Below, in pieces: positions 33,892-50,826 of a stretch of DNA of 64,000 nucleotides. The first letter of the stretch is position 1; every line of letters starts with the position of its first letter. The position numbers and the translations under genes were made by a program. Below the pieces are notes generated by a model. The model was not told the origin of the DNA. It ran no database searches and saw only the letters and a list, made by a program, of their open reading frames with translations. The stretch is from Clostridia bacterium. GTDB taxonomy: Bacteria; Bacillota; Clostridia; UBA1381. The stretch lies in NCBI GenBank assembly GCA_045648165.1, contig JAZRNL010000008.1, positions 50,834-114,833 of the forward strand, in the 5' to 3' direction.

Positions 33892-35124
33892 TTAAAATAA
33901 AATTATAATAAATTGAGCAGCAAAGACTACTGCTACAAGGGCAATAGGATAAGTTGCAGCATATGCTGCCGCCACATCTTCCGTTTCTGCAACGTGAATA
34001 AGTGTACCCAATGCAGGTGTACTTGTCATACCGCCGGTAATTGAACCAAGGATATTTAAAATACTTATTTTAAGAACATATTTTGCAAAAACAAAACCTA
34101 TTATCATAGGAAGAATTGTCATTATTATGCCATAAACAAAATAATCTATTTTAAATTCCTGCATAAATCTTGCACCGCCAGAAATCCCTGCACCTACAAG
34201 AAACAACACAAGACCTAATTCTCTGAAAACTTTTAAAGTTGTTACAGAAGGCATAATATTTACTTTTCCTATTTTCCCGAAATGACCAAAAACAAGAGAT
34301 GCTAAAAGACATCCGCCTGTTGTTGTTAATGAGAAAGTTGTACCATCCAAGCCTTTGCTTGAAAGAGGGATTTTTATCATACCAATAAAAACTCCGATTA
34401 CTGCAGCTATTGCAAATGGCGCAATTCCAAAATCATCAAGTTCAATTATTTTACCTGTTAGTTTTTTTGAAACATTAGACTGTTCAGCAACAACCAATTT
34501 TTCACGCTCTTTGTCCATATTCACCTTTAAAATTTTAGGTATAAGCTGAACAAATAAAACAACACCAATAACGCCAAAAATATAAGCAATACCGTAGCCA
34601 ACCGAAACAAGCTGTTCCATTTCAGGGCTTGCTACTGATGCCTTGGCTGCGGAAAACGCCGGTGTAGATGTTAATGCCCCGGCAAATAAGCCGGACACAA
34701 TAGCAGAAAGCCTTTCCATATCAGTTTCGCCCATTAATTTACCGATATATACACACCCAACCGCAACAAGCGCACCTGATATTATAATAACTAATCCAAG
34801 TAACACATATGAAGTAAAATTCTTTTTCATATTGCTAAAAAACTTAGGGCCGGCAATAAATCCAACTGATGAAACAAACAGGATAAGTCCAAGATTTTCA
34901 ACAATCTTCAAAGCATTAGTAGTATAATCAGGAAGCTGAGCTTCAAGATTATCATAAAACAAACAACCAAATACCAAGGCAACTATAAACACGCCGGCTG
35001 AACCTAAAGATATACCCTTGATTGTTATTCTGCCCAACGCATAACCTACAGCCAGAATACACATAATGCAAAATACTAAAAATGTTATTCCTGTAATAGG
35101 TACAACTCCGCCAAATAAATTCAT
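33892..35124 (-). CDS. AAE-family (aspartate:alanine / succinate exporter type, YidE/YbjL-like) transporter, short form
   Basis: 410 aa made of two Asp-Al_Ex-like halves (GRITIKGISLGSAGVFIVALVFG and a second repeat). They are joined by a short linker in place of the RCK_C domains seen in 550-aa members. Confidence 0.7.
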   Translation of the reverse strand: MNLFGGVVPITGITFLVFCIMCILAVGYALGRITIKGISLGSAGVFIVALVFGCLFYDNLEAQLPDYTTNALKIVENLGLILFVSSVGFIAGPKFFSNMKKNFTSYVLLGLVIIISGALVAVGCVYIGKLMGETDMERLSAIVSGLFAGALTSTPAFSAAKASVASPEMEQLVSVGYGIAYIFGVIGVVLFVQLIPKILKVNMDKEREKLVVAEQSNVSKKLTGKIIELDDFGIAPFAIAAVIGVFIGMIKIPLSSKGLDGTTFSLTTTGGCLLASLVFGHFGKIGKVNIMPSVTTLKVFRELGLVLFLVGAGISGGARFMQEFKIDYFVYGIIMTILPMIIGFVFAKYVLKISILNILGSITGGMTSTPALGTLIHVAETEDVAAAYAATYPIALVAVVFAAQFIIILF

Positions 35125-35140
35125 AGCACAAAACTCTCCT

Positions 35141-36739
35141 TTATTTCTTTCTTGTGTAGTCAGGCAAAAGTTTGGGTGAAGCTACTTGAGTATCAATGCC
35201 TGCATCAGAAATTTCTTTTTCGAATTTCTCAATATGTGAGAGTGAAAGCTTACCTACATTTACATTCTTAGCTTTTGCCGCAGCATTCTGACCAGCACTT
35301 CTGCCAAATACAATTATATCCAGCAGAGAATTACCCATAAGTCTGTTCTTACCGTGAATTCCGCCAACTGCTTCGCCTGCAACAAATAAGTTTTCTACAT
35401 TAGTTGTCATACAGTCTGCAGTAATGTCAAGACCGCCGTTCTGATAGTGAAGTGTGGGATAAACCAAAATAGGCTCTTTTCGGATATCTATGCCGTATTT
35501 TTCAAACATACGCATCATAGCCGGAATTCTCTTCTCTATAGTTCCTTCCCCACCGATTTTTTCTATCATCGGGGTATCAAGCCAAACACCTTCACCACTT
35601 CCGGTATCTACACCATTACCTCTTTCAGAACATTCACGAATAATAGAAGCCGCAGCAACATCACGTGTTTCAAGGGGATGCATAAACACTTCACCATTCT
35701 GGTTAACAAGTTTTGCACCAAGTGAGCGGACTTTTTCAGTAACAAGTGCACCAAAAATCTGTTCCGGATAAGCAACACCTGTGGGGTGATACTGAAGTGT
35801 TTCAGCATAAAGAAGCTTTGCACCTGCGCGGTATCCGAGAACAAGACCATCTGCAGTTGCTCCGTAGTGATTTGATGTTGGGAATCCCTGATAATGCATA
35901 CGACCTGCGCCGCCTGTTGCAATGATAACTGTTTTTGCTTTTGCAACCAGGAGCTCTTTTGTTTCCATATTCATAAGAACAGCTCCGGCCGCATTACCGT
36001 TTTCATCAAGAATAAGTTCGATTGCGGAAGTGAAATCAACCACGGGGATATTACGGTTTAAAACTTCGTCACGTAGAGTTCTCATGATTTCAGCACCGGA
36101 ATAATCCTTTGCCGCATGCATTCTCTTTCTTGAAGTACCGCCGCCGTGAGTTGTTACCATTGTTCCGTCAGCTTCTTTGTCGAATTCAACACCTAAATTA
36201 CTAAGCCACAAAATAGCCTCTGGCGCATCACAAACGAGCTTTGATAAGAGCTCTCTTTTTGCAGCAAAATGTCCGCCACCGAAAGCATCAACAAAATGGA
36301 TTGCAGGAGAATCGTTTGGCTTATCAGCCGCCTGAATACCGCCTTCAGCCATCATTGTATTTGCATCACCCATTCTGAGCTTTGTAACAATCATAACATC
36401 AGCACCGGCTTCGTGAGCTTCAATTGCCGCAGATGTACCCGCACCGCCACCACCGATGATTAAAACATCAGTTTCGTAATCGGGTTTTGTGAGGTCAACG
36501 CTGTCTTTTGTTATGCGGCTGTGTGCCTGTAAAATTTCAGCAAGTTCTGTTGGAACCTTATCTCCCTTATTAGGGCCGATTTTTAAAACATCAAATTCGT
36601 CCTTTTTATAGTCCGGATGAAAAGCCGCAAGCAAATCTTCTTTCTGCTTTGCAGTCATACGATCCGGTTCTAATGCAATATTTTTTTCTCTTGCCGCTTC
36701 AACCGCCGCAATAGACTTTTGAAATTTTTCCGAATACAT
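35141..36739 (-). CDS. Soluble fumarate reductase / succinate dehydrogenase-family flavoprotein (TfrA/FrdA-like)
   Basis: FAD fold VLIIGGGGAGTSAA begins near residue 92. Also present: LQYHPTG, ETRD, GATADG and GIHGKNRLMGNSLLD. ANTMMAEGG lacks the His used for covalent FAD attachment. Confidence 0.75.
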   Translation of the reverse strand: MYSEKFQKSIAAVEAAREKNIALEPDRMTAKQKEDLLAAFHPDYKKDEFDVLKIGPNKGDKVPTELAEILQAHSRITKDSVDLTKPDYETDVLIIGGGGAGTSAAIEAHEAGADVMIVTKLRMGDANTMMAEGGIQAADKPNDSPAIHFVDAFGGGHFAAKRELLSKLVCDAPEAILWLSNLGVEFDKEADGTMVTTHGGGTSRKRMHAAKDYSGAEIMRTLRDEVLNRNIPVVDFTSAIELILDENGNAAGAVLMNMETKELLVAKAKTVIIATGGAGRMHYQGFPTSNHYGATADGLVLGYRAGAKLLYAETLQYHPTGVAYPEQIFGALVTEKVRSLGAKLVNQNGEVFMHPLETRDVAAASIIRECSERGNGVDTGSGEGVWLDTPMIEKIGGEGTIEKRIPAMMRMFEKYGIDIRKEPILVYPTLHYQNGGLDITADCMTTNVENLFVAGEAVGGIHGKNRLMGNSLLDIIVFGRSAGQNAAAKAKNVNVGKLSLSHIEKFEKEISDAGIDTQVASPKLLPDYTRKK

Positions 36740-36752
36740 ATTCTTTTCCTCC

Positions 36753-37427
36753 TTACTTCTCTATTTCACGGGTGTTATAAAGCTCTTTCATTTCCTCAAT
36801 TGGCTTTTGCATAAGAGCTTCTATAAGTTCTTTAAAATCACCATTTTCAATTTCCTTAACGCGATCCTCTAAATGACCACATCCCGGAGCTAAATACTTT
36901 CCGTTAATTCTTCTGGCAAGCATCGCAACCTGAGGATGTGAAATTCCTGCGGGGCATCTTGAAGAACATACTCCACACATTACACAGTCAAAAGATTCCT
37001 CAGCACATTTTTCAAAATCACCGCGCTGTGCATAGGCAATATACTGCATAACATTAAGTCCCTGAGTACAGCTTTTAGTGCAGGCCTTACAGCCGATACA
37101 AGCATAAATTTCGGGATAAAGCTGCATCATAACAGATTCATTTACAGGAATGTTTTCAATATCATAGCCTTCCTTAACAAGCGGGAAGAAAGGAAGAGTT
37201 GCAATATACATATTGTCCTCAACCTTAGTCTGACAAGCAAGACAAGCTTTAAGCTCCTTATCGCCTTTTATGCGGTAAATAGTTGCACAGGCACCACAAA
37301 AACCGTTACGGCAGCCGCAACCGCGAACCAACTGGTATCCTGCATATTCCATAGCGGTCATAATTGTTAAATTTTCGGGTACTTCATATTTTTTACCGAA
37401 AAGAAATATATTAACTAATTTTTCCAT
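36753..37427 (-). CDS. SdhB/FrdB-like iron-sulfur subunit (2Fe-2S plus two Cys clusters), no CCG domain
   Basis: CGCRNGFCGAC...C..C at the N-terminus, then CIGCKACTKSC and CVMCGVCSSRCP. Confidence 0.75.
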   Translation of the reverse strand: MEKLVNIFLFGKKYEVPENLTIMTAMEYAGYQLVRGCGCRNGFCGACATIYRIKGDKELKACLACQTKVEDNMYIATLPFFPLVKEGYDIENIPVNESVMMQLYPEIYACIGCKACTKSCTQGLNVMQYIAYAQRGDFEKCAEESFDCVMCGVCSSRCPAGISHPQVAMLARRINGKYLAPGCGHLEDRVKEIENGDFKELIEALMQKPIEEMKELYNTREIEK

Positions 37428-37439
37428 GTTACCTCTCCT

Positions 37440-38273
37440 TTAATACTCATCCGGAAGCTCATCAAGCTCATCACATCTGAAAACCGGACCGTCTTTGCAC
37501 ACATATTTTGCACCAACATTACATCTTCCGCATTTGCCGACACCACACTTCATTCTAAGCTCAAGCGTTGTGTAAATCTGCGTTTTATCAAAACCAAGTT
37601 CACAAAGTCCATCCAAAGTAAACTTAATCATAATAGGAGGGCCGCAAAGAACTGCTGTTTTATTTGTGTCAAAGCCGAGTTTCTTTACATAATTGGGAAC
37701 AAATCCAACATGACCATCCCACCCATCTTGGGGATTGTCAATAGTAAGATGAACCTTTACGCCTGCATCCTGTGACCACTCATCAATGATTTCTTTATAA
37801 TCAAGCAAATCATCCTTACTTCTTGAACCGTAAACTATATCAATTTCACCATAGCGGTCACGATAATGTCTGCAATAATTAATTACGGAGCGAAGTGGTG
37901 CAAGACCAACACCACCTGCAATAAACAACAGGTTTTTGCCTGCAAATACATCATCAACAGGGAACGGTTTTCCGTATGGGCCTCTGATTGTTATCTGCTG
38001 ACCAACCTCTGCCTGATGTAGCCAGTCGGTTACGCATCCGCATTTTTTAATAGAAAATTCCATATACTCTTCGTTCGTGGGAGAAGACGTTATAGAAAAC
38101 ATTGCTTCTCCAACTCCGGGGACAGAAAGCATAGCACACTGACCGGGACGATGGTCAAAAGCTTTTTTGCCATCAGGCAAAACAACTCTGAAGGTTTTGA
38201 TATCAGGAGTGTCGATACGAACATCAGTTATAACACCGACTTTTGGTATTAAAGTTTCTTCTCTGTTATTCAC
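37440..38273 (-). CDS. flxA: FlxA-like FAD/NAD(P)H-binding oxidoreductase with C-terminal 2Fe-2S (AsrB/HydG/PyrK fold)
   Basis: FNR-like fold (RPGQCAML, LLFIAGGVGLAPLRS) and a terminal CGVGKCGRCNVG. Confidence 0.75.
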   Translation of the reverse strand: MNNREETLIPKVGVITDVRIDTPDIKTFRVVLPDGKKAFDHRPGQCAMLSVPGVGEAMFSITSSPTNEEYMEFSIKKCGCVTDWLHQAEVGQQITIRGPYGKPFPVDDVFAGKNLLFIAGGVGLAPLRSVINYCRHYRDRYGEIDIVYGSRSKDDLLDYKEIIDEWSQDAGVKVHLTIDNPQDGWDGHVGFVPNYVKKLGFDTNKTAVLCGPPIMIKFTLDGLCELGFDKTQIYTTLELRMKCGVGKCGRCNVGAKYVCKDGPVFRCDELDELPDEY

Positions 38274-39295
38274 TTATCATCCCCTCCAATCTTTCTCATT
38301 ACTTTAACAATATTCATAGAAATAGGGCACTTAGCAAGACATCTTCCGCAACCTACACAACTGAAAAGACCATTATTGTTTTCAGGATAATAAACAAGTT
38401 TGTGCATAAATCTCTGACGAAAACGTTCTTTTTGGGTAAGTCTGTTATTTCCATGAGCCATTTTTGTGAAATCCGAATACATACAAGAATCCCAACATCT
38501 GAATCTTATAACGCCTTTGCCCGTATTAAAATCTTTAATATCATAGCACTGACAAGTGGGACATACGAAAGTACAGGTTCCGCATCCGAGACAAGCTGAT
38601 GACAATTCTTCCCACTCAGGATTGTTGAAAAACGCATCGGTTTTTCCACCGCCGAAAGAGTTGGTGGTGAGGTCTTTAAGGGGAAGCTTGTTCATAATCT
38701 TTGAAATCTTTTCCTTCTGCTCATTAACCTTAGTTTCATCACATTCATCGGTAAAAGAAACAATCTTTTCTAAAAGAGCTTCTCCCTTTGACGTGTTAGC
38801 CTTAAAGAAAATCTCGTCTTCTGTTTTCCATGTTGTAACGTCGCCCTCAGGTTCTTCTGGAGAAATTCCAAAAGTTTTGCAAAAGCATGTTTCTGCCGGC
38901 TTTGCACAAGCAGTAGACACAATAACACCTTTTTGGCGCCTTGAAGCATAGTAGCTGTCAACAGGCTCGGTGAGGAATACTCTGTCTAAAACCTCAAAGC
39001 TTTTTACATCACAAGCGCGCACTCCGAAAACAACAAAATCTTCTGCTTCGCGTCGATTGTCAATAACTTCAATGTTTTTACCCTCTGTTTTAAATTCCAT
39101 CAAATTTTCCATTTGAGGAAAGAAGAAATCCTTTGGACTTCTTACAGTATTTAAAGCATCGCTCCATAAAACGCCATTTTCCCACTGTTTGTAAACAGCA
39201 CTTCCGTCATTATCATTAGCAGGAATATATAGCTTTGCGGTTTTTGCGATTTCTTCAAAAACCGCATTTATTTTATCAAGAGAACATTTACGCAT
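38270..39295 (-). CDS. flxB: FlxB-like iron-sulfur protein (AsrA / sulfhydrogenase-beta type)
   Basis: CLGCGTCTFVCPTCQC and CVGCGRCLAKCP. AGGAGGG RBS before ATG 39295. It overlaps flxA by 4 nt and flxC by 8 nt. Confidence 0.7.
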   Translation of the reverse strand: MRKCSLDKINAVFEEIAKTAKLYIPANDNDGSAVYKQWENGVLWSDALNTVRSPKDFFFPQMENLMEFKTEGKNIEVIDNRREAEDFVVFGVRACDVKSFEVLDRVFLTEPVDSYYASRRQKGVIVSTACAKPAETCFCKTFGISPEEPEGDVTTWKTEDEIFFKANTSKGEALLEKIVSFTDECDETKVNEQKEKISKIMNKLPLKDLTTNSFGGGKTDAFFNNPEWEELSSACLGCGTCTFVCPTCQCYDIKDFNTGKGVIRFRCWDSCMYSDFTKMAHGNNRLTQKERFRQRFMHKLVYYPENNNGLFSCVGCGRCLAKCPISMNIVKVMRKIGGDDK

Positions 39296-40286
39296 CAATA
39301 TCCCTCCTGTCAAACACTTCACCGGGCTCTAAATCCTCAGTGGTATAATCTACAAGCGGAGCTCTTGATCCAACTTCTGCTCCTGCCTGGTATTCACCAT
39401 AAAATTCGTTAATATCTTTAATAAACTTACGGTTTAAAAGATGAAGTGGAATATTTTGCGGGCAAACTCTTGAACATTCTCCGCAATCTGTACATCTGCC
39501 TGCTACATGATATGCTCTTATAATATGGAACATTTTCTCTTCGAAGCTATTGGCAGGTGCTTTATTTTCAACGCCGGATGCAGGATTGTCAAACACGCAC
39601 TTTTCACATGTACATGCAGGACAGGCATCACGGCAAGCATTACAACGGATGCAACGTGAAAGCTCATTCTGCCAGAATTCAAATCTCTCATCCGAAGTCA
39701 TCGCCTCGATTTTTGCCACCTCATCAAATCGTGACGAATCAACAACTTCGCCTTCATCACCCATAAGCTCGTCGTAAGCTACGTGTTTTTTACTCTTACA
39801 ATTTATGCAACGTTCCAGAAGTACATCCTTTGCAGAAACTGAAACAGCCTTATCTTCATAAATTGTTGTGATAAGAAGATTTTCGCCATCTGAGGCAACC
39901 TCGCTTATTCCCTCACCTGTTACGGCTTTCAGTTTTGAAATATCAACCATCCCTTCGCAAGGAATACCAACTGCATAAACCTTTTCGCGATCGAAACGGT
40001 GTTCAGTTAAAAGTTGATTAAAGCTATAGGTATCGCAAGGCTTTAAGAAAATAAGGATTTTACCTTCAAATCTATCTGTCTTTGAAACGAGATATTTTGA
40101 AAAATTCACTCCGCAAAAATCATTCCAGACAAAATTATCTTTTAAATCTTCTCCGGTTGTGAACATTTTAGGTGTTACATCGTAACCGAATTCGCCCTTA
40201 CTCCATCCAAGAACTGCTGTAACAGTACCGTTTGAAAGCAGAGAAACTGCTTTATCTATTAACTGATTTTGTGTTATCTTTTGCAT
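39288..40286 (-). CDS. flxC: FlxC-like iron-sulfur protein
   Basis: CIRCNACRDACPACTC and CTDCGECSRVCP. GGAGGA RBS. It overlaps mvhD by 13 nt. Confidence 0.65.
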   Translation of the reverse strand: MQKITQNQLIDKAVSLLSNGTVTAVLGWSKGEFGYDVTPKMFTTGEDLKDNFVWNDFCGVNFSKYLVSKTDRFEGKILIFLKPCDTYSFNQLLTEHRFDREKVYAVGIPCEGMVDISKLKAVTGEGISEVASDGENLLITTIYEDKAVSVSAKDVLLERCINCKSKKHVAYDELMGDEGEVVDSSRFDEVAKIEAMTSDERFEFWQNELSRCIRCNACRDACPACTCEKCVFDNPASGVENKAPANSFEEKMFHIIRAYHVAGRCTDCGECSRVCPQNIPLHLLNRKFIKDINEFYGEYQAGAEVGSRAPLVDYTTEDLEPGEVFDRRDIDA

Positions 40287-40708
40287 CGCAGATCCTCCAA
40301 TCTCTTATTCTCTCCAAGTGCTGTAACTTTCTCAACAAAATCGTTCATTGTAGCTGCAAATTTTGCGCCTTCAGCTGCAGAAACCCATTCTACACGTGTA
40401 CGCTCTTTTTCAATACCGAGAAAATCAAGCATAGAAAATAGTGCTGCCATTCTTCTGCGTGTGTAGTAATTTCCGGATGTATAATGACAATCGCCGGGAT
40501 GACAACCACATATAATAACTCCATCTGCACCTCTTTGGAATGCGCGAAGAACAAACATAGGGTTAACGCGACATGAGCAAGGAACTCTTATAATTTTTAC
40601 ATCTGCCGGATAGTTAAGACGGTTGTTTCCTGCAAGGTCTGCACCGGCATAAGAACACCAGTTACAACAAAAAGCAACAATTAAAGGTTTATGTTCATTT
40701 ACTTGCAT
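40274..40708 (-). CDS. mvhD: MvhD/FlxD-like (methyl-viologen-reducing hydrogenase delta subunit family) protein
   Basis: IVAFCCNWCSYAGADLAG...VPCSCRV...ICGCHPGDCHY, typical of the FlpD/MvhD family. It overlaps hdrA by 10 nt. Confidence 0.85.
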   Translation of the reverse strand: MQVNEHKPLIVAFCCNWCSYAGADLAGNNRLNYPADVKIIRVPCSCRVNPMFVLRAFQRGADGVIICGCHPGDCHYTSGNYYTRRRMAALFSMLDFLGIEKERTRVEWVSAAEGAKFAATMNDFVEKVTALGENKRLEDLRCKR

Positions 40709-42693
40709 ATTGCATCCACCTCCGCCATAATTTGATTACTTGCAAATCCGTTCAAGTCCATTGCACCTGACGGGCATGCAACAGTACAAGCGCCACAACC
40801 CTGGCAAACTGCAGGATTAACAACGGCAACTCGTCTTACCTTAGTTGTTCTGTCAGGCATACGGAACTCTTTATCTTCATAAGTGATAGCTCCGTAAGGA
40901 CAAACTCTCTCACAAGAAGAACATCCGTTACACATAAGTTCATTTGAATGAGCTACACAGGGATTTCCTGTTAATTTATCCTTTGCAAGAAGTCCGATAA
41001 CCTTAGAAGCTGCCGCACCAGCCTGAGAAACTGTTTCAGGAATATCCTTAGGTCCCTGACAAGCACCCGACAGGAATACACCTGCAGTAGGGCTTTCTAC
41101 CGGACGAAGCTTCGGATGAGCTTCTGTAAAGAAGTCGTTTGTATCCATACTCGCTGTAAGCATAGTTGCAAGAGGACGCGCGGATTTATCAGGCTCGATA
41201 GCCGCCGCAAGAACCACCAGGTCGGCATCGATATGAAGCTGTTTATTATCAATAAGGTCAGAAGCCTGAACTTTTAGTTTATCACCCTCAGGAGTAACCT
41301 TGCCAACCATACCTTTAACATATTTTACACCATATTCCTCGACTGCGCGGCGATAAAATTCATCAAAGTTCTTACCGGGAGTTCTAACGTCTATATAGAA
41401 CACATAAACCTCGGTATCAGGATACTTATCTCTCACGAGCATTGCGTGCTTGGCTGTGTACATACAACAAATTTTTGAGCAATACTCTTTACCCTTTTCG
41501 GCACAAGCATCGCATCTTGAACCTACACACTGAACGAATACGATAGTTTTGGGGGACTTTCCGTCCGAAGGTCTTTCAAGGTGACCTGCAGTAGGACCTG
41601 CCGCATTTGTAAGACGTTCAAATTCAAGGGATGTAATAACATCTTTAGACTGATTGTAGGCAAACTCATCAAATTTATCCATACTGATTGGATTAAAGCC
41701 AGTTGCAACAACAATCGCACCATATTTTTCATTAATATATTCATCTTTTTGAGTGTAATCAATAGCACCAGCCGCACAAACTCTTGCACAAAGACCGCAT
41801 TTACCATTTTTAAGCATATTACATGCATTGGGATCGATTGTAGCAACCTTCGGAACTGCCTGTGCAAAAGGAATATATATAGCACTTCTGTTATCCATTC
41901 CAAGGTTAAACTCGTTAGGAACCTTCTTCATAGGACACTTTTCAACACAAGCGCCGCATCCGGTACATATATCTTCCTTTACATATCGTGCATTTTTCTT
42001 GATAGTTACATCAAAGTTTCCTACAAAACCTTTGATTTCTGATACTTCGCTGTACGAGAAAATGCGAATGTTTTCATTTTGGGCAACATCCACCATTTTC
42101 GGTGTTAGAATACATGCCGCACAGTCAAGTGTAGGGAATGTTTTATCAAGCTGAGCCATTTTCCCGCCGATTGTAGGCTTTGTTTCAACAATGTCAACAG
42201 GAAATCCTGCATCAGCTATATCAAGTGCTGTCTGGATACCTGCTATTCCACCGCCTATAACAAGAGCTCTCTTTGTAACAGGTGATTCACCCGGTGTAAG
42301 CGGAGTGTTTAAGTTGACCTTAGCAACAGCCGCTTTGCCGAGAATAATAGCTTTTTCTGTTCCTGTGGGGATATCCTTATGCACCCAAGAACACTGCTCT
42401 CTTATATTCGCAATTTCAACCATATAAGGATTTAAGCCTGCGGCAGCTGCAGTTTTTCTGAAAGTTGCCTCATGCATACGGGGTGAGCACGAACAAACAA
42501 CAATGCCTGTAAGATTATGCTCTTTTACCGCTTCCTTAATCATGTCTTGTCCTGCCTGAGAACACATATACTGATAGTCGGTGGAAAAGACAACACCGGG
42601 TTCGCTTTTCAAGGCTTCAGCTACTGCTTTTACATCAACTGTACCTGCAATGTTGCTACCACACCAACATACAAAAACTCCAACTCTTTGCAT
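40699..42693 (-). CDS. hdrA: Heterodisulfide reductase subunit A-like bifurcating flavoprotein
   Basis: 664 aa. N-terminal Cys domain (VFVCWCGSN...VVCSCSPR), FAD site ALVIGGGIAGIQTALD, an inserted ferredoxin (CTGCGACVEKCP, CGLCARVC) and a C-terminal ferredoxin (CNGCSSCERVCP, CQGCGACTVACP). Confidence 0.9.
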   Translation of the reverse strand: MQRVGVFVCWCGSNIAGTVDVKAVAEALKSEPGVVFSTDYQYMCSQAGQDMIKEAVKEHNLTGIVVCSCSPRMHEATFRKTAAAAGLNPYMVEIANIREQCSWVHKDIPTGTEKAIILGKAAVAKVNLNTPLTPGESPVTKRALVIGGGIAGIQTALDIADAGFPVDIVETKPTIGGKMAQLDKTFPTLDCAACILTPKMVDVAQNENIRIFSYSEVSEIKGFVGNFDVTIKKNARYVKEDICTGCGACVEKCPMKKVPNEFNLGMDNRSAIYIPFAQAVPKVATIDPNACNMLKNGKCGLCARVCAAGAIDYTQKDEYINEKYGAIVVATGFNPISMDKFDEFAYNQSKDVITSLEFERLTNAAGPTAGHLERPSDGKSPKTIVFVQCVGSRCDACAEKGKEYCSKICCMYTAKHAMLVRDKYPDTEVYVFYIDVRTPGKNFDEFYRRAVEEYGVKYVKGMVGKVTPEGDKLKVQASDLIDNKQLHIDADLVVLAAAIEPDKSARPLATMLTASMDTNDFFTEAHPKLRPVESPTAGVFLSGACQGPKDIPETVSQAGAAASKVIGLLAKDKLTGNPCVAHSNELMCNGCSSCERVCPYGAITYEDKEFRMPDRTTKVRRVAVVNPAVCQGCGACTVACPSGAMDLNGFASNQIMAEVDAICK

Positions 42694-42709
42694 TTTTGTC
42701 TACTCCCCC

Positions 42710-43096
42710 TTACTTACTATATTTTCTGAATGCACTGACCAGAAGTTGTTGCGGAACATCTTCATCCAGAAGTGCCGGAACATCGTTTGCAGTCATTCTG
42801 TTTTCACCCTGTTTTCTTATAGCACTAAGGCGAACAGCTTCAACTAATTTAGCAGGCTCAACGCCTCTCGGGCATCTGTCGATGCAAGCAAAACAAGATA
42901 AGCATTTATATAATGATTCTGATTTTAAAAGCGGCTGTATATCTCCGCTCTCAACCATACTTACAAACTGATGGGGATGATACTCCATCTCATTGTAAGC
43001 AGGACAGGTAGCAGAGCATTTTCCGCATTTCATACATTTTTTAGGATTTACTCCACTTTGACGGATTAACTCCTCACGAAGATACTTATTATTCAT
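42710..43096 (-). CDS. hdrC: Heterodisulfide reductase subunit C-like (2x[4Fe-4S])
   Basis: CMKCGKCSATCP and CLSCFACIDRCP; 128 aa. Confidence 0.85.
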   Translation of the reverse strand: MNNKYLREELIRQSGVNPKKCMKCGKCSATCPAYNEMEYHPHQFVSMVESGDIQPLLKSESLYKCLSCFACIDRCPRGVEPAKLVEAVRLSAIRKQGENRMTANDVPALLDEDVPQQLLVSAFRKYSK

Positions 43097-43880
43097 TTGT
43101 ATCCTCCTTTACTCCAAGTGCTTCTGCTAAAAGCTCGGTGAAATAAACAACCGGTATATCAGCACCGTTTTTCTCAAGATTGTATTTACAAAGAGGACAA
43201 GCTGTTATAATCATTTCAGCTCCCTGCGCTTTAGCATTGGCTACTACAGAATTACTGCTCTTTTTTGCTAAATCCGGACTTTCAACGCTAACATATCCTC
43301 CACAACACTCATTGCGTTTTGCAAAGATTACAGGCTCTGCTCCCAAAGCCTTTATGAAATTTTCCATAATACTTGGGTTTTCAGGATCGTCCATCTTCAT
43401 AACACTGTTAGGTCTTAATAAAAGACAACCGTAATATGCTGCAATTTTCTTTCCTTTTAGCGGGTTTACAACCTTTTCGGCCAATTTATCAAACCCCACC
43501 AAATCGCGAAGCATTTCAAGATAGTGATAAACCTCGGTTTCTCCAAAATATTCGCCGTCTTCTTGCATATAACGGTTTACTTTATCGGAAAACTCCTTGT
43601 CATTTTGCATAAAATAATTTGTTTGTTTAATAACATTATGGCAAGCTGAGCATACTGTAACTAAAGGCTGTTCTTTTAAAGAAGCATCCTTTAGAGCACG
43701 AACAGAAGAAAGCTTTGTCGCAACTTCATCTTTCGCGGTAGTAAATACTCCGCCGCAGCATTGCCAGTTTTCAATTTCTTCCAGTGTAACCCCTAAAGCT
43801 TCCGCAGATTTATATGCATACAAATCAAGGTCTTTTGCTTTATTTTTCAAGGTACAGCCGGGAAAATAACTAACCTTCAT
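43089..43880 (-). CDS. hdrB: Heterodisulfide reductase subunit B-like (two CCG domains)
   Basis: Two CCG repeats: FPGC...QCCGG...CSAC and YYGC...ECCGG...CPLC. GGAGG lies 6 nt before ATG 43880. Confidence 0.88.
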   Translation of the reverse strand: MKVSYFPGCTLKNKAKDLDLYAYKSAEALGVTLEEIENWQCCGGVFTTAKDEVATKLSSVRALKDASLKEQPLVTVCSACHNVIKQTNYFMQNDKEFSDKVNRYMQEDGEYFGETEVYHYLEMLRDLVGFDKLAEKVVNPLKGKKIAAYYGCLLLRPNSVMKMDDPENPSIMENFIKALGAEPVIFAKRNECCGGYVSVESPDLAKKSSNSVVANAKAQGAEMIITACPLCKYNLEKNGADIPVVYFTELLAEALGVKEDTNE

Positions 43881-43894
43881 TTTATACCTCCAAA

Positions 43895-45271
43895 TCAAAC
43901 CATTTGTTCAGGATGGAATACCTCGTCAAACTTCTCGGAAGTCAAGAAGCCCAATTCAACGCAAGCTTCCTTAAGTGATATATTATCCTTGAATGCCTTT
44001 TTAGCTGTTTTTGCTGCATTTTCGTATCCGATATAAGGATTAAGCGCAGTAACAAGCATCAAGGAATTGTGCAAATTATGATGCATTTTTTCCGTGTTTG
44101 CCTTAATACCCACTGCACAGTTTTTATTAAATGATCGGATTGCTTCAGCCATCAGTCTTGCAGACTGGAGGAAGTTATAAGCACAAACAGGCATAAATAC
44201 ATTAAGTTCAAAATTACCCTGCGAAGCTGCCATTCCAACGGCAACATCATTACCCATTACCTGAACTGCAACCATGGTTACGGCTTCACATTGTGTTGGG
44301 TTTACTTTACCTGGCATAATAGATGAACCCGGCTCATTTTCTGGGATGAATATTTCGCCAAGACCGTCTCTCGGGCCTGATGCAAGCCAACGTACATCGT
44401 TTGCAATCTTCATCATATCTGCAGCAAGTGCCTTAATTGCACCATGTGCAAATACAAGTTCATCCTTTGATGTGAGAGCATGAAACTTATTTTCTGCTGT
44501 CACAAAAGGCTTATTTGTGATATTGCCAACCTCAGCTGCAACAAGTTCTCCGAACTTTTCCGGCGCATTAAGACCTGTTCCTACAGCAGTGCCGCCAAGA
44601 GCAAGCTCATAAAGGGGCTCAACTGAGCGCTTTATAAGCTCAATATCCTTTTCAAGGCTTGAACGCCAACCACTTATTTCCTGTGTAAACTTAATAGGAG
44701 TTGCATCCTGAAGATGTGTTCTTCCGCTCTTAACAATTCCTTCGTTTTCTGCCTCAAGTCGCTTGAATGTGTCTACCAATTCCTGAATTGCAGGAATTAA
44801 TTTATCTTCAAGAACAAGCACAGCGGCAATATGCATGGCTGTAGGAAATGTGTCATTTGAAGACTGACTCATATTAACATCATCGTTGGGATGAAGCAAT
44901 TTATTTCCTAAAATCTGGTTTCCTCTGTTTGCAATAACCTCGTTGGTATTCATATTAGACTGTGTGCCGGAGCCTGTTTGCCATACAACAAGAGGAAAAT
45001 TATCATTTAGCTTTCCTGCCATAATTTCATCACAAGCACCTTTAATAGCTTCAAGCTTTTCCTTTGTCATTTTTTCAGGACGAAGTGTATTATTTGTTAT
45101 TGCAGCTGCTTTTTTAAGCACGCCGAATGCGTGTATGATTTCTGCAGGCATTGTTTCAATACCTACACCTATCTCAAAATTTTCATGACTTCTTTGTGTC
45201 TGGGCAGCCCAAAGCTTATCAGCCGGAACTTTTACCTCACCCATTGAGTCGTGTTCAATACGATATTCCAT
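43895..45271 (-). CDS. fumC: Class II fumarate hydratase
   Basis: HDSMGEVKVPADKLWAAQTQRS and the GSSIMPGKVNPTQCE signature. The start is either ATG 45271 (better RBS spacing) or ATG 45280. Confidence 0.93.
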   Translation of the reverse strand: MEYRIEHDSMGEVKVPADKLWAAQTQRSHENFEIGVGIETMPAEIIHAFGVLKKAAAITNNTLRPEKMTKEKLEAIKGACDEIMAGKLNDNFPLVVWQTGSGTQSNMNTNEVIANRGNQILGNKLLHPNDDVNMSQSSNDTFPTAMHIAAVLVLEDKLIPAIQELVDTFKRLEAENEGIVKSGRTHLQDATPIKFTQEISGWRSSLEKDIELIKRSVEPLYELALGGTAVGTGLNAPEKFGELVAAEVGNITNKPFVTAENKFHALTSKDELVFAHGAIKALAADMMKIANDVRWLASGPRDGLGEIFIPENEPGSSIMPGKVNPTQCEAVTMVAVQVMGNDVAVGMAASQGNFELNVFMPVCAYNFLQSARLMAEAIRSFNKNCAVGIKANTEKMHHNLHNSLMLVTALNPYIGYENAAKTAKKAFKDNISLKEACVELGFLTSEKFDEVFHPEQMV

Positions 45272-45291
45272 TTTGTTCATTCCTTTCTGAT

Positions 45292-46233
45292 TTATATATT
45301 AAGACCTTTTATTAAATCCTTAAGAACGTTTGCACTGTTATGAAGTGCTGCAATTTCTTCATCATTAAGAGGAAGCATAATTTTGCTATGTGCGCCCTTA
45401 TTTCCTACAACATTTAAAAGACTCAGGCACACATCATCAATGCCATATTCGCCATTAAGAAGTGTTGATACCGTAAGAGTTGTATCAATTCCGCTTAAAA
45501 GGCACTGACACACGTGGCAAACTGATATTGACACTGCATAGAATGTCGCGCCTTTGCGCTGAATAACTCTTGCACCTGATTTACGCATATAATTTTCAAC
45601 TTCATCTTTATTAAATTCAGGGTAATCAGCGCCTGTTAAAATTGCATTTCTATAGCTTTCAATGGGCACATTTGATATGTTTGCAATTGACCAGGGAACA
45701 AATGAACTGTCGCCGTGTTCACCAAGCACATAAGCGTGTACATTCTTCTGATTTACTGAATAGTATTCAGAAACTCTTGAACGAAGTCGTGCAGTATCGA
45801 GTATTGTACCTGAACCGATAACGCGTTCCTGCGGGAGGCCTGTATGCTTCAAAAATACATATGTTAAAATATCAACAGGGTTACTAACAATAACGTATGT
45901 GGCTTCAGGAGCAACAGGAACAATTTTATCTGCTATACTCTTTATGATGTCAACGTTAGTCTGAGCAAGGTCAAGCCTTGACTGCCCGGGCTTTCTTGCC
46001 ATACCTGACGTAATAACAACTATATCAGAGCCTGCAGCATCATCATATGTTCCTGCATAAATAGTTGCAGGATTGCAGAAAGGAACGCCCTGTCTTATAT
46101 CAAGGGCTTCGCCAAGAGATTTTTCCTCATTAACATCAATCATAACAATTTCCGATGCAAGCCCCATAATTGTAAGTGTGTATGCAATTGTGGAACCTAC
46201 ATTACCCGAACCGATTACTGTAATTTTATTCAT
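45292..46233 (-). CDS. mdh: LDH-family 2-hydroxyacid dehydrogenase predicted to act as malate dehydrogenase
   Basis: LDH-type blocks (VIGSGNVG, GSGTILDTARLR, VLGEHGDS). The specificity position reads MARKPGQSR, with Arg where L-LDH has Gln. It sits next to fumC. Confidence 0.7.
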   Translation of the reverse strand: MNKITVIGSGNVGSTIAYTLTIMGLASEIVMIDVNEEKSLGEALDIRQGVPFCNPATIYAGTYDDAAGSDIVVITSGMARKPGQSRLDLAQTNVDIIKSIADKIVPVAPEATYVIVSNPVDILTYVFLKHTGLPQERVIGSGTILDTARLRSRVSEYYSVNQKNVHAYVLGEHGDSSFVPWSIANISNVPIESYRNAILTGADYPEFNKDEVENYMRKSGARVIQRKGATFYAVSISVCHVCQCLLSGIDTTLTVSTLLNGEYGIDDVCLSLLNVVGNKGAHSKIMLPLNDEEIAALHNSANVLKDLIKGLNI

Positions 46234-46277: not shown

Positions 46278-47699
46278 TTACTTTAAAACGGATACTGCAT
46301 CTAAAATTGTCTTTTCAAGTGCTTCTCGTCCGTATTTATCCACTTCAGCTTTATTCTTTTCACCATGGGTAAGGCAACCTGCACCTCCGATACAACCACC
46401 GACACACGCCATACCTTCTATGAAGTTAGCATCCAGAACATTCTTACTCTTTTTAAGAAGTGCCATCTTGCAAGCTTCAATTCCGTCACAAGGAATTGCT
46501 TTTAAGTCAAAATCAATGTTCTGTTCCGCGAGCCCTTGGGCAACCGCATCAGAAAGCCCTCCGGAGCGAGCAAATATTCTTCCAAAATAGGATGCATTGT
46601 CAAGAACGTCTTCGTCAAGTGTTGTAATATCAAGGTCCTTACTATCGTAAAGTGCCTGAAGTTCCTCAAATGTAAGAACTGCATCTACATAGGGTTTAAC
46701 TTCCTCAAGTTGTGCTTCTGCTTTTTTTGCAGTACAAGGCCCGATAAACACAACCTTTGAACCAGGATCTGTATCTTTAATATATTTCGCAAGTGTTGCC
46801 ATAGGCGAAAGATTATGTGAAATATATTGCACCAAATCGGGGAATGTCGATTTTACATAAGACACAAACGCAGGACAACATGAACTTGTTAAAAATCCTT
46901 TTTCACTGAGTTCTTTTGACTCTGCCTGAGCAACCATATCTGCACCCAGGGCAGCCTCAATAACAGTGTAAAATCCGAGTTCCTTTAATCCCTTAATTAC
47001 TTGTCCGAGTTTTGCGTAAGTAAACTGGCTTGAGATAGACGGTGCAACCATTACGTAGACTTTGTAATTTTTATTTCCCTCGCTGTTTTTTATAAGCTCA
47101 ATTGCATCTAAAATATATGACTTATCCATAATAGCACCGAAAGGACACTGATATACACAAGCACCGCAACCGGTACATTTACTGTTGTCAATCGCTGCTG
47201 CATTGTCTTCATTAATGGATATAGCCTTGATTTTACATGCATTCTGGCAAGGTCTTTTACGATTTATAATTGCAGAAAACGGACAAACCTTTGCACATTG
47301 ACCGCACTCAACGCATTTTGATTTGTCAATATGCGCTACATGATTTGAATCAAAAATGATTGCACCTTTTTTGCAAACATCTTCGCAGCGGTGAGCAAGA
47401 CAGCCGCGACAGGATTCTGTTACAACATATCCTGCAGACGGACATTCATCACATGCGATATCAATAACCTCAATCACATTGGGATTTTCCTTGTCACCTC
47501 CCATAACAATTTTAATTCTTTCTTCTAAAATTGCTCGTTCTTTGTACACGCAACAACGCATGGTAGAAGTTTTACCAGGTACAATGATTTTTGGAATTTC
47601 AAACACATTTTCAAGCAGAGCATCCTTCCATGCGTAACGTGCAACTTCACGCAGCACCTTATATTTTAAATGCTGCACTTTTGTGTCAAATTTTCTCAT
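46278..47699 (-). CDS. [FeFe]-hydrogenase-family protein (HfsD-like; two ferredoxin-type clusters plus H-domain)
   Basis: 473 aa. CVECGQCAKVCP and CTGCGACVYQCP, followed by H-cluster motif variants TSSCCPAF, GPCTAKKAE and EGMACVGGCIGG. Confidence 0.8.
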   Translation of the reverse strand: MRKFDTKVQHLKYKVLREVARYAWKDALLENVFEIPKIIVPGKTSTMRCCVYKERAILEERIKIVMGGDKENPNVIEVIDIACDECPSAGYVVTESCRGCLAHRCEDVCKKGAIIFDSNHVAHIDKSKCVECGQCAKVCPFSAIINRKRPCQNACKIKAISINEDNAAAIDNSKCTGCGACVYQCPFGAIMDKSYILDAIELIKNSEGNKNYKVYVMVAPSISSQFTYAKLGQVIKGLKELGFYTVIEAALGADMVAQAESKELSEKGFLTSSCCPAFVSYVKSTFPDLVQYISHNLSPMATLAKYIKDTDPGSKVVFIGPCTAKKAEAQLEEVKPYVDAVLTFEELQALYDSKDLDITTLDEDVLDNASYFGRIFARSGGLSDAVAQGLAEQNIDFDLKAIPCDGIEACKMALLKKSKNVLDANFIEGMACVGGCIGGAGCLTHGEKNKAEVDKYGREALEKTILDAVSVLK

Positions 47700-47711
47700 G
47701 TGTCACTCTCC

Positions 47712-48884
47712 TTAAAAATAACTAACTTTAATTCTTTTTCCCATCTTTGTAAGGCACTTTGAAAGTTCCTCAACAAGATTCATTTTTATACTGAAATTTA
47801 TGGGCAAATCAGGATTCTGATGTGCCGGATTTATAGCACGACCTACATAGAAATTTATATCTGTAGCTTCTTCAAACAACAGCTGGCATATAAGTGATGC
47901 ACCATCACGATTATAATTCCACTGCTCATACATTTCGTTATCGCCTAAATAATCCTTGGCATATTCCAAAACTCTGTTTACTGTTATAACGCCTTCAGTA
48001 ACAAGGTCAACTCCTTCAAGATGAGCAATTGGCGGAATGTCTGAATTTTCAAAATTAAGGCTCGCTCTGAGCGGTTTTCTTAAATATTTAGCCGCAATTG
48101 AAGAAGTTGTTCCGCCGCAAATGATGTGCTTCCCTTCTTTTGAGAAGAAAAGAGACATCATTCTATCACAATCATCACGGTTAGACGGAGGACCGAAAAG
48201 AATGTTCATCGGCTCTCTTTTTCTGATTTTTACGATACAGGCAGTTGCATCGTCACCGGGCTTTTGACCATATAGTTTATCACATTCATCAACTAAAAGT
48301 GTGGATAGATTTTTAGCAGTAAGTCCGGATACTGACATAGTTTCCATAAATTCAATAATGTCTTCACGTTTCCAACCAAAGTTATACGCCATACCTATTC
48401 CGGCATGAGGACAGCCGTCGCTCATAGCAATGAAAATATCATTTTCCTGTATACGAATCTGGCTTTTAAAAATCTTTTTGCCACCAATATTCATTTCAGT
48501 TTTCGGATAATCGTAATTCTTATTATTCCGCAACACAATCACCTGGGGATTATCGTACTGAATTATCTCAACCATTTCGTTGTTGATAATCTGCATAATT
48601 GTAAATGTGGAATAGGCAACGCCTCTCACTGAACACACAGGAAGGGTTGCAGCTATAGTTTCGACACACTCTTCAACAGGTAGCCCCTCTGCCATCATAG
48701 TTGAAATAATTTTTGATGTAAGGGTAGAAAGAATACTCGCTTTTACACCGCTCCCAAGACCATCAGCAAGTACGATTACGGTTGAGTTCTCATTTTGTTC
48801 AACAATGTCCACATGGTCACCGCAAAGTTGCTCGCCATAATGATTAATACTTTTCCAGCCGATATCTGCACATAAATCATTCAT
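47712..48884 (-). CDS. SpoIIE/PP2C-family serine phosphatase
   Basis: GDHVDIV...VLADGLGSGVKASILS...MSDGC are PP2C signatures. It overlaps hydS by 8 nt. Confidence 0.8.
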   Translation of the reverse strand: MNDLCADIGWKSINHYGEQLCGDHVDIVEQNENSTVIVLADGLGSGVKASILSTLTSKIISTMMAEGLPVEECVETIAATLPVCSVRGVAYSTFTIMQIINNEMVEIIQYDNPQVIVLRNNKNYDYPKTEMNIGGKKIFKSQIRIQENDIFIAMSDGCPHAGIGMAYNFGWKREDIIEFMETMSVSGLTAKNLSTLLVDECDKLYGQKPGDDATACIVKIRKREPMNILFGPPSNRDDCDRMMSLFFSKEGKHIICGGTTSSIAAKYLRKPLRASLNFENSDIPPIAHLEGVDLVTEGVITVNRVLEYAKDYLGDNEMYEQWNYNRDGASLICQLLFEEATDINFYVGRAINPAHQNPDLPINFSIKMNLVEELSKCLTKMGKRIKVSYF

Positions 48885-50565: not shown

Positions 50566-50822
50566 ATCCTTTCATTATTAATTACAGATAACACTTTTTC
50601 TTCGAAAAATTCTTTAAAATTATCGCGGTTAATTCCTGTATGTATTACATCATCCACCTGAACAGTTACTCCAAGACGATTACACTTACCGATACAGAAG
50701 CTTCCCGTAAGCGCAACTTCATTCCGAAGATTATTTTCTTCAATAGCTTCAGTAAACAACTCAACTATTTCAGGTGAACCCTTTATATAGCATGAACTGC
50801 CTATGCATATTTGAATTAACAT
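50562..50822 (-). CDS. Thioredoxin-like [2Fe-2S] ferredoxin (HfsA/NuoE-like), copy 2
   Basis: 86 aa with the four-Cys pattern CIGSSC...CIGKC. Confidence 0.7.
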   Translation of the reverse strand: MLIQICIGSSCYIKGSPEIVELFTEAIEENNLRNEVALTGSFCIGKCNRLGVTVQVDDVIHTGINRDNFKEFFEEKVLSVINNERM

Positions 50823-50826
50823 TTCT

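Follow-up and report, generated by a model that had tools for sequence, protein, structure and literature searches.

A 64,000-nucleotide stretch of a Clostridia bacterium genome (contig JAZRNL010000008.1, positions 50,834 to 114,833 of the forward strand), called the window below, carries on its minus strand a gene cluster in which malate dehydrogenase and fumarate hydratase genes are joined to a complete Flx-Hdr module, a two-gene reductase, and a permease gene. I consider it rather likely that the products of this cluster convert oxaloacetate to succinate in the cytoplasm, independently of quinones, and that they include an NADH-driven, ferredoxin-reducing soluble fumarate reductase. The cluster is a further instance of the Flx-Hdr-linked soluble fumarate reductase operon that has already been proposed for Pseudoclostridium thermosuccinogenes, and it is not categorically new. 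What is new here is the attachment of mdh and an AAE permease gene to the operon, the strict conservation of a nine-gene core and its wide spread in gut and rumen Oscillospirales-type Clostridia including Ruminococcus flavefaciens, the modularity of the reductase pair (Hdr-only, NuoF-linked, stand-alone, and fused), and a recurrent neighborhood of hydrogenase and H2-sensor genes.

According to the open reading frame (ORF) coordinates of the window, twelve co-directional ORFs occupy positions 33892-46233 of the minus strand. From 5′ to 3′, the order is mdh, fumC, hdrB, hdrC, hdrA, mvhD/flxD, flxC, flxB, flxA, the iron-sulfur (FeS) gene, the flavoprotein gene, and the AAE permease gene, as follows.

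45292..46233, minus strand: mdh, LDH-like NAD-dependent malate dehydrogenase, 313 amino acids (Ldh_1_N/C; Arg at the Gln102 position)
43895..45280, minus strand: fumC, class II fumarate hydratase, 461 amino acids (Lyase_1 and FumaraseC_C; TIGR00979, 710.7 against a cut-off of 664.75)
43089..43898, minus strand: hdrB, subunit with two CCG domains (Pfam)
42710..43096, minus strand: hdrC, 2x[4Fe-4S] subunit, 128 amino acids (Fer4_8/Fer4_17; two CxxCxxCxxxCP)
40699..42693, minus strand: hdrA, FAD/FeS subunit homologous to bifurcating HdrA, 664 amino acids (HdrA2 model, 783 bits)
40274..40708, minus strand: mvhD/flxD, MvhD-type 2Fe-2S adaptor, 144 amino acids (FlpD, E = 7.5e-56)
39288..40286, minus strand: flxC, FeS protein, 332 amino acids (dicluster domain; colinear in 56/57 loci)
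38270..39322, minus strand: flxB, sulfhydrogenase-beta/AsrA-like FeS protein (Fer4_22; ShyB, HydB, and AsrA models)
37440..38273, minus strand: flxA, NAD(P)H/FAD/2Fe-2S input subunit, 277 amino acids (FAD_binding_6, NAD_binding_1, DHODB_Fe-S_bind)
36753..37427, minus strand: FeS subunit with 2Fe-2S and 2x[4Fe-4S], 224 amino acids (Fer2_4/Fer2 and a Fer4_9 dicluster domain)
35141..36739, minus strand: flavoprotein, 532 amino acids (FAD_binding_2 matched over 1-414 of 414 profile positions)
33892..35124, minus strand: AAE-family permease, 410 amino acids (two Asp-Al_Ex domains, E = 1.3e-64)
33821-33866, minus strand: intrinsic terminator closing the operon (hairpin and U7, -22.2 kcal/mol, z = -5.7, 0/200 shuffles as good)

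The cluster is a tightly packed operon. The overlaps are 4 nucleotides for flxA/flxB, 8 for flxB/flxC, 13 for flxC/mvhD, 10 for mvhD/hdrA, and 8 for hdrC/hdrB; the remaining junctions are gaps of 11-16 nucleotides, and there is no unassigned ORF between the operon genes. The flxB/flxC value applies to ATG 39295, which is the likely start of flxB, and would be 35 nucleotides if the upstream GTG 39322 were used. A preliminary description of this DNA, made from the letters alone, had given the twelve-gene run, the five overlaps, and a terminator after the last gene, and all of these were reproduced. Since its loop is 10 nucleotides long, this terminator was overlooked by a consensus terminator scan, and its hairpin was confirmed by folding. 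Other terminator-like matches inside the cluster were disregarded as short G+C stems in coding sequence. The co-directional run had also been taken to start at mdh; this part did not stand, since five further tightly spaced genes lie upstream (46278-51066). In a hydropathy scan, the permease alone among the cluster proteins has hydrophobic segments. An FrdC/D or cytochrome b anchor was looked for among the ORFs between the genes and in the hydropathy of the redox subunits, and none was found in the cluster, in agreement with the membrane anchor gene having been described as missing.

Is this arrangement kept in other genomes? With two family-specific peptide patterns, at least 591 confirmed relatives were found in species-representative genomes. 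The synteny sample consists of the 80 best of these at least 591 relatives, with flavoproteins of 75-96% identity. The loci were compared by tblastn with the window proteins, and the denominators given here are loci with enough flank. All of the 80 are Clostridia from gut and rumen samples, the closest being metagenome-assembled genomes (MAGs) from yak gut (96%). The carriers include MAGs labelled Acutalibacteraceae, Oscillospiraceae, Ruminococcus, and Congzhengia, as well as the cultured Yeguia hominis and R. flavefaciens (L071). The nine-gene core HdrB-HdrC-HdrA-MvhD-FlxC-FlxB-FlxA-FeS-flavoprotein is colinear in 56 of 57 loci. Thus, the gene arrangement is far beyond chance. The order of the redox core is kept even where identity falls to 50-60% for HdrB, FlxB, and FlxC, while the flanks are variable: fumC lies upstream of hdrB in 52/55 loci, mdh upstream of fumC in 44/55, and the AAE gene directly downstream in 48/70. 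The preliminary description had named a lack of synteny between the reductase pair and hdr/flx in related genomes as something that would overturn its reading; the survey found the opposite. The sole exception among the 57 is a Congzhengia sp. MAG (L026), whose FeS and flavoprotein genes at 9247-11605 are 84-85% identical to those of the window; the 10 kb upstream of them contain none of the hdr, flx, fumC, and mdh genes. This pair may be a second copy or a rearrangement.

For members at 50-75% identity, synteny was sampled via five representative proteins. The P. thermosuccinogenes flavoprotein presumably falls in this range. On one contig (L081, 1-10246, Logan SRR24270839), a 55%-identical flavoprotein comes after HdrA-MvhD-HdrC-HdrB-FeS in an operon that begins with a four-subunit 2-oxoacid:ferredoxin oxidoreductase, and no Flx genes were found on this contig. 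In marine Gammaproteobacteria MAGs (L082/L083, 9366-12891), the FeS and flavoprotein genes are followed by a NuoF-like (Complex1_51K) gene, with no Hdr. The pair is alone in Prochlorococcus sp. MIT 1201 (L084, 10001-12357), where the FeS gene lies downstream, and also in L085; some further distant members have the flavoprotein alone. A natural fusion of the two proteins, P0122, stands alone on a gut MAG contig (L086, 5250-7433), with no hdr/flx in the 5 kb upstream. Judged from these neighborhoods, the FeS/flavoprotein pair behaves as a portable reductase module that may be plugged into different electron-input modules. Succinate fermentation is not expected in the marine Gammaproteobacteria and Prochlorococcus carriers.

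The P0122 protein is 727 amino acids long, and its FeS part is 42% identical to the FeS subunit of the window without gaps over 224 residues. The natural fusion strongly suggests that one enzyme is formed by the FeS protein and the flavoprotein. In the FeS subunit, 15 Cys residues are conserved in 76 sequences, which is compatible with one 2Fe-2S and two 4Fe-4S clusters, and two complete CxxCxxCxxxC motifs point to the two 4Fe-4S clusters. It is not a canonical SdhB/FrdB, which would have a 2Fe-2S (Fer2_3), a 4Fe-4S, and a 3Fe-4S cluster. It scores below the SdhB cut-offs (Fer2_3, 19.6 against 27; dhsB, 29.6 against 88) and weakly matches the N-terminal half of TfrB (E = 4e-9) as well as SdhB. 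Of the earlier label of an SdhB-like protein with a 2Fe-2S and two further clusters, the cluster content holds; the likeness to SdhB is distant, with all SdhB models below cut-off.

In the flavoprotein, H318/T320 (HPT), E335, R338, R359 (the proton shuttle), H431, and R466 align with the substrate-binding and catalytic residues of Sdh/Frd and are invariant in 81 sequences, so that the Frd/Sdh-family blocks noticed earlier are indeed present. With these His, Arg, Thr, and Glu residues and a fold with a capping domain, the protein belongs to the Sdh/Frd/NadB superfamily. However, it is not a canonical SdhA/FrdA: it scores below cut-off, the position of the covalent-FAD His of SdhA is taken by Asn127, which is invariant, and no match to the Succ_DH_flav_C domain was found with Pfam. 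A non-covalent FAD is typical of soluble enzymes that reduce fumarate and do not oxidize succinate. Among curated models, TfrA ranks first with 353 bits (cut-off 718), followed by SdhA/FrdA TIGR01812 with 289 (567) and NadB TIGR00551 with 275 (453), and none reaches its cut-off. The order is similar in the PDB, where SdhA/FrdA proteins (214-179 bits) score above NadB (164), and the sequence search there found no solved structure of the family or a close relative. A search of 1.84 billion cluster representatives indicated that the family is distinct. A handful of full-length relatives, 40-58% identical, share the N-terminal extension of about 90 amino acids, which is family-specific; beyond them, there is a sharp fall to generic Sdh/Frd/NadB-type proteins of 35-43% identity that align only from residue 88.

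The electron-transferring proteins next to the flavoprotein resemble parts of a known fumarate reductase. TfrB is covered in successive segments by the FeS protein (19-148), HdrC (134-220), and HdrB (260-487), each matching at 26-55 bits against a cut-off of 385. The four proteins are not TfrAB equivalogs, since TfrA is matched at 353 against 718 and there is no single FeS+CCG polypeptide. From these partial matches, the FeS protein, HdrC, HdrB, and the flavoprotein together look like a split Tfr.

All seven FlxABCD-HdrABC subunit types are present with their cofactor motifs. HdrA residues 3-661 align to the bifurcating HdrA of Methanothermococcus (M. wolfeii), 5odc_A, at 681 bits, both ferredoxin domains included. 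HdrB matches the methanogen HdrB chains 8rvv_B and 5odc_B over the full length in the PDB. This alignment begins at residue 7 of the TTG-started ORF, and hence ATG 43880 is probably the start of hdrB. HdrB has exactly 10 cysteines, all in two CX31-38CCX34-36CXXC motifs that are invariant in 57 sequences. Its scores are equal for the models of SdhE of methylmenaquinol:fumarate reductase (MFR) (155 bits) and of CoB-CoM HdrB, both below cut-off. The best NCBIfam models for HdrC are HdrC and QmoC, and MvhD/FlxD matches VhuD and the C-terminal part of HdrA2. In PDB sequence searches, FlxA matches the gamma subunit of Pyrococcus sulfhydrogenase I (9nez_C) at 189 bits, and FlxB matches the beta subunit of P. 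furiosus sulfhydrogenase I (9nez_B) at 164 bits. No solved Flx-Hdr structure was found in the 2026 release of the PDB with HdrA, HdrB, FlxA, or FlxB as queries. The earlier identification of HdrA, MvhD, and FlxA agrees with the full-length HdrA match, the FlpD domain, and the FAD, NAD, and 2Fe-2S domains, and the two CCG domains of HdrB and the two CxxCxxCxxxCP motifs of HdrC were seen again with Pfam and motif searches. FlxB and FlxC had been called poly-ferredoxins; this label is loose, and they are FeS proteins of the AsrA/sulfhydrogenase-beta-like kind.

The product of mdh passes the cut-offs of L-lactate dehydrogenase (LDH) models (NF000824, 346.6 against 339; TIGR01771, 332.1 against 303.55), and it also passes that of a malate dehydrogenase model (NF004863, 283.8 against 283). 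The residue at position Gln102 of LDH determines specificity, and an Arg at this position marks an oxaloacetate-reducing, LDH-like malate dehydrogenase. The window protein has Arg there (GMARKPG), as do all of 45 orthologues. L-lactate dehydrogenase was therefore rejected for the first gene despite the LDH cut-offs passed. Under the Q102R rule, the protein is an LDH-like malate dehydrogenase, although annotation pipelines would probably call it L-lactate dehydrogenase. The malate dehydrogenase named in the preliminary description is thus upheld, as is FumC, which exceeds an equivalog cut-off. The permease was correctly placed in the AAE family: besides its two Asp-Al_Ex halves, it scores 153 against a cut-off of 72 with TIGR01625 (YidE/YbjL duplication domain). 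It is without the central TrkA_C domains of AspT and YidE.

In the proposed route, Mdh would reduce oxaloacetate, and FumC would dehydrate the malate to fumarate. FlxA would oxidize NADH, and the electrons would travel via FlxB, FlxC, and MvhD to the HdrA flavin, which would split each pair. The high-potential electron would pass through HdrC, the HdrB CCG clusters, the FeS subunit, and the non-covalent FAD to fumarate, while the low-potential electron would pass through the HdrA ferredoxin domains to ferredoxin (Fd). The overall reaction would be 2 NADH + Fd(ox) + fumarate -> 2 NAD+ + Fd(red) + succinate. Rnf or a hydrogenase, such as the one encoded next to the operon, would re-oxidize the reduced ferredoxin, and transport of succinate or another C4-dicarboxylate would fall to the AAE permease. 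I calculate about -43 kJ/mol for the overall reaction, taking E0′ as -320, +33, and about -450 mV. With its +33 mV, the fumarate/succinate couple is thermodynamically suited as a high-potential acceptor, about as well as crotonyl-CoA. The sequences show the gene identities, unbroken cofactor and catalytic motifs, the solubility of the redox proteins, the operon structure, and the synteny; beyond this, I infer a physical complex of Hdr and the reductase, direct transfer from cluster to cluster, bifurcation itself, a specificity of FlxA for NADH, and what the permease transports. No quinone, cytochrome, or canonical frd genes were seen in the 64-kb window.

The wiring of HdrB to the reductase is supported by the piecewise coverage of TfrB, by TfrA being the best model of the flavoprotein, and by HdrB scoring as high for SdhE, the CCG subunit of MFR, as for HdrB. 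Methanogen TfrAB is an established precedent for a fumarate-reducing module wired to a CCG module. The NADH-driven bifurcating fumarate reductase that had been read from this DNA is supported as a hypothesis, and those parts of it that could be tested in silico all passed.

Several observations weigh against this interpretation. The reductase pair is not obligatorily linked to Hdr, since it stands by itself in L026, L084, L085, and as the fusion P0122 (L086), and next to the NuoF-like gene in L082. Because the pair also occurs without Hdr, co-location in the operon could mean co-regulation and not one complex. Part of the synteny is shared ancestry, the 80 genomes being fairly close relatives with flavoproteins of at least 75% identity. 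The intact disulfide-reducing site of HdrB, as judged from its motifs, would leave room for a thiol/disulfide intermediate. In the literature and the PDB, no enzymatic, co-purification, or structural proof of the model was found, and PMC6776011, PMC12174285, PMC8671834, and PMC9044749 hold nothing on an Hdr-linked fumarate reductase. The likeness to the P. thermosuccinogenes operon described below makes the two operons orthologous-looking, in gene order and sizes and not by sequence comparison.

The room left at HdrB leads to an alternative in which two enzymes are coupled by a thiol pool. Flx-Hdr would bifurcate to ferredoxin and a disulfide, as proposed for Desulfovibrio, and the thiol would be re-oxidized with fumarate in a Tfr-like manner. 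The two complete, invariant CCG motifs of HdrB would suit this, the thiol:fumarate reductase subunit TfrA is the best curated model of the flavoprotein, and PMC7282089 has Flx-Hdr passing electrons to 'ferredoxin (and thiols)'. However, the reductase pair is without a CCG domain of its own and HdrB is the sole CCG protein, so that a free thiol would be made and consumed at the same site. The CCG cysteines are also kept in proteins that do not act on heterodisulfides (SdhE of MFR, to which HdrB scores equally, and GlpC), and no candidate thiol carrier or genes for its biosynthesis were found in the operon. I consider a thiol pool unlikely.

It might also be that the enzyme is a non-bifurcating soluble NADH:fumarate reductase, with Flx-Hdr as a mere electron wire and no reduction of ferredoxin. 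In principle, bifurcation is unnecessary, as relatives of the pair adjoin a NuoF-like NADH module in Gammaproteobacteria (L082/L083). However, a seven-gene Hdr-Flx with a full-length HdrA, kept in 56 of 57 loci, would be extravagant when a one-gene module is enough elsewhere, and a fermenter without quinones would forgo about 68 kJ/mol. Another argument for a ferredoxin link comes from P. thermosuccinogenes, in which the formation of succinate is sensitive to H2 (PMC7282089). A plain wire is quite improbable to my mind.

The flavoprotein may act on something else, as an L-aspartate oxidase or a reductase of urocanate, acrylate, or another enoate, with fumC and mdh as mere neighbors. No curated cut-off is reached (TfrA, NadB), the proteins form a clade apart, unique in its N-terminal extension and lacking the C-terminal domain, and distant members are found in organisms without an obvious need for fumarate reduction, such as Prochlorococcus. 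In contrast, all dicarboxylate-binding and catalytic residues of Sdh/Frd are invariant, fumC precedes the redox core in 52/55 loci and the oxaloacetate-specific Mdh is there in 44/55, SdhA/FrdA rank above NadB in the PDB search, and the carriers include known succinate producers. NadB is not known to have an FeS partner. L-aspartate oxidase itself was rejected because of how the scores rank, because the flavoprotein has an FeS partner, and because fumC and mdh belong to its context, and the grouping of the flavoprotein with L-aspartate oxidase, which had been named beforehand as fatal to the fumarate reductase reading, is not what the ranking gives, TfrA and SdhA/FrdA being above NadB. Another substrate is very unlikely. 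Covalent FAD raises the flavin potential enough for succinate oxidation. A reverse, confurcating enzyme for growth on succinate (succinate + reduced ferredoxin -> fumarate + 2 NADH) is hardly credible, although flavin-based bifurcating enzymes are reversible in principle and the AAE permease could import, because the covalent-FAD His is replaced by an invariant Asn, the carriers R. flavefaciens and P. thermosuccinogenes excrete succinate, and the operon has an oxaloacetate-reducing Mdh.

The soluble, ferredoxin-reducing fumarate reductase, which I prefer, has been reached independently by another group. The 'succinate operon' of P. thermosuccinogenes consists of a fumarate hydratase gene, a seven-gene Flx-Hdr, a two-gene novel fumarate reductase, and a small hypothetical gene (Koendjbiharie et al., BMC Microbiol 2020, PMC7282089). 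Electron transfer from NADH to fumarate and ferredoxin was proposed for it there, and earlier in a 2019 preprint (Koendjbiharie and van Kranenburg). The operon is expressed at thousands of fragments per kilobase per million (FPKM) and co-regulated about 4-fold, and H2 abolishes the formation of succinate (PMC7282089), which is what a coupling between the reduction of fumarate and that of ferredoxin would lead one to expect. The preliminary description had known of no precedent; this must be given up, since the same design had already been proposed in these two works, for an operon of equal gene order and sizes, although a biochemical characterization was not found in the literature. In full-text searches, which also covered any connection with Ruminococcus, these two works were the only ones that set out the idea. 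Both operons have the order of fumC, seven Flx-Hdr genes, and two fumarate reductase genes, which is here fumC, hdrB, hdrC, hdrA, flxD, flxC, flxB, flxA, FeS, and flavoprotein. The sizes are close to identical and compare as follows (PMC7282089 supplement).

Flavoprotein gene: about 1603 nucleotides in P. thermosuccinogenes, 1599 in the window
FeS gene: about 676 nucleotides in P. thermosuccinogenes, 675 in the window
Five-gene block from FlxA to HdrA: 5348 nucleotides in P. thermosuccinogenes, 5254 in the window
hdrB: 784 nucleotides in P. thermosuccinogenes, 792-810 in the window
fumC: 1366 nucleotides in P. thermosuccinogenes, 1386 in the window

The window alone has mdh at the front of the operon and a hydrogenase/sensor block contiguous upstream. 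Its last gene encodes the 410-residue AAE permease, whereas that of P. thermosuccinogenes is the hypothetical gene of about 250 nucleotides. The hosts also differ: the window comes from a mesophilic Clostridia bacterium of gut or rumen that has not been cultured.

Other known systems share parts of the design. In Desulfovibrio vulgaris, the gene order is reportedly flxABCD-hdrABC, the reverse of that in the window. A bacterial HdrABC-MvhD physically attached to a non-disulfide reductase is said to exist in Moorella thermoacetica as HdrABC-MvhD-MetVF, reportedly the finding of Mock et al. 2014. The Moorella system differs from the window in its MetFV reductase and substrate and in having no Flx module. 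FlxABCD-HdrABC of D. vulgaris (Ramos et al. 2015) has all seven subunit types, and NADH-dependent bifurcation to ferredoxin has been proposed for it. In D. vulgaris, however, a disulfide (DsrC) has been proposed to accept the high-potential electrons, in the context of ethanol metabolism, while the window adds the reductase pair and fumC/mdh. In methanogen MvhADG-HdrABC and Fdh-HdrABC (5odc, 7bkb, 8rvu), HdrA, HdrB, HdrC, and MvhD are full-length homologues, and the logic is shared: a donor module, MvhD, a bifurcating HdrA flavin, ferredoxin, and HdrC/B leading to a high-potential acceptor. In contrast, the methanogen donor is a hydrogenase or Fdh, and CoM-S-S-CoB is reduced at HdrB; the window has the NADH-linked Flx, and fumarate would be reached via the extra reductase. 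Methanogen TfrAB is likewise a soluble, anchor-less fumarate reductase whose flavoprotein is wired via FeS to an HdrB-type CCG module. It differs in its electron source, CoM-SH/CoB-SH instead of an Flx-HdrA module, and in that the window proteins score far below its cut-offs, have separate FeS and CCG parts, and include a flavoprotein with an N-terminal extension but no C-terminal domain. In type E succinate:quinone reductase (SQR) and methylmenaquinol:fumarate reductase SdhABE, a CCG protein (SdhE) also partners an Sdh/Frd flavoprotein-FeS pair. These enzymes are quinone-linked and membrane-associated with canonical SdhA/SdhB, whereas the window system has no quinone site and includes HdrA and Flx.

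If the proposed reductase is real, flavin-based electron bifurcation would gain another class, one in which fumarate is the high-potential acceptor. How quinone- and cytochrome-free Clostridia form succinate while conserving the roughly 68 kJ/mol of NADH-to-fumarate transfer would then be explained, and the reductase would be relevant to R. flavefaciens, a major rumen cellulose degrader, and to many uncultured gut Oscillospirales-type species. Propionate in rumen and colon is made from succinate, which is also an electron sink in competition with H2 and methane. Thus, the enzyme matters for methane mitigation, models of gut short-chain fatty acids, and bio-succinate. The pathway may escape standard searches with FrdA/SdhA markers as well as automatic annotation, with its labels 'FAD-binding protein' and 'L-lactate dehydrogenase'. 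Since the system is compact enough for heterologous expression, the hypothesis is directly testable.

Directly upstream of mdh, the following features were found, assigned with Pfam unless otherwise given.

46278..47699, minus strand: group-B monomeric [FeFe] hydrogenase (TIGR04105, 556 against a cut-off of 450)
47712-48884, minus strand: PP2C/SpoIIE phosphatase
48877-50565, minus strand: sensory [FeFe]-hydrogenase-like protein with a PAS domain
50562-50822 and 50827-51066, minus strand: two small thioredoxin-like 2Fe-2S proteins
51165-51137, minus strand: TG-extended promoter-like site ahead of the block
51315-51284, minus strand: strong terminator ahead of the block (terminator scan)

The genes of the regulatory block 47712..51066 overlap or are separated by gaps of 12 nucleotides or fewer. 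There are 44 nucleotides between the stop codon of the hydrogenase gene and the start codon of mdh, with no hairpin in the gap, and 17 genes lie between the two terminators. Thus, the transcription unit may extend upstream into the hydrogenase block. This neighborhood is recurrent: a hydrogenase, sensor, or phosphatase gene is found near the cluster in at least 13 related genomes, upstream in 6 and downstream in at least 7. The group-B hydrogenase gene abuts mdh in L001, L004, L022, L023, L027, and L035, and a hydrogenase gene lies downstream of the cluster in L037, L041, L051, L052, and L058. HydS and PP2C adjoin the cluster in L044, L051, and L052, and PP2C alone does so in L046. Since many relatives have no hydrogenase upstream, mdh must also have its own promoter.

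The group-B hydrogenase is possibly an outlet in the same unit by which ferredoxin is re-oxidized, and a ferredoxin-oxidizing hydrogenase beside a ferredoxin-reducing fumarate reductase fits the bifurcation model. It is conceivable, though rather unlikely, that positions 51066-33892 form one 17-gene unit of about 17 kb, in which an H2-sensing module (the two small 2Fe-2S proteins, the sensory hydrogenase with its PAS domain, and the phosphatase) controls the group-B hydrogenase together with the bifurcating fumarate reductase and sets the split between succinate and H2 by the ambient H2. Fumarate reduction would then pull NADH electrons up to ferredoxin, from which they would be vented as H2. 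A passage of PMC7174568 cites the classic observation that the succinate output of R. flavefaciens falls when H2 is taken away by a methanogen. If the 17-gene unit is real, control by the H2 sensor would explain this drop.

At the other end of the operon, an AraC-family regulator gene (32390-33241, plus strand) converges on it. The approximately 580 nucleotides between this gene and the operon terminator (33242-33820) hold no ORF of 80 amino acids or more. An H+/Na+-translocating membrane pyrophosphatase (H_PPase, 905 bits) is encoded at 15991-18084 on the minus strand, 16 kb from the cluster, and is another sign of a non-respiratory energy economy based on ion gradients. A purine biosynthesis operon (purE, AIR synthase, formyltransferase, IMP cyclohydrolase, AICARFT, GARS) occupies 2545-9491 on the minus strand. 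The other genes of the window are housekeeping genes, including those for ClpB, D-Ala-D-Ala ligase, and PrmC.

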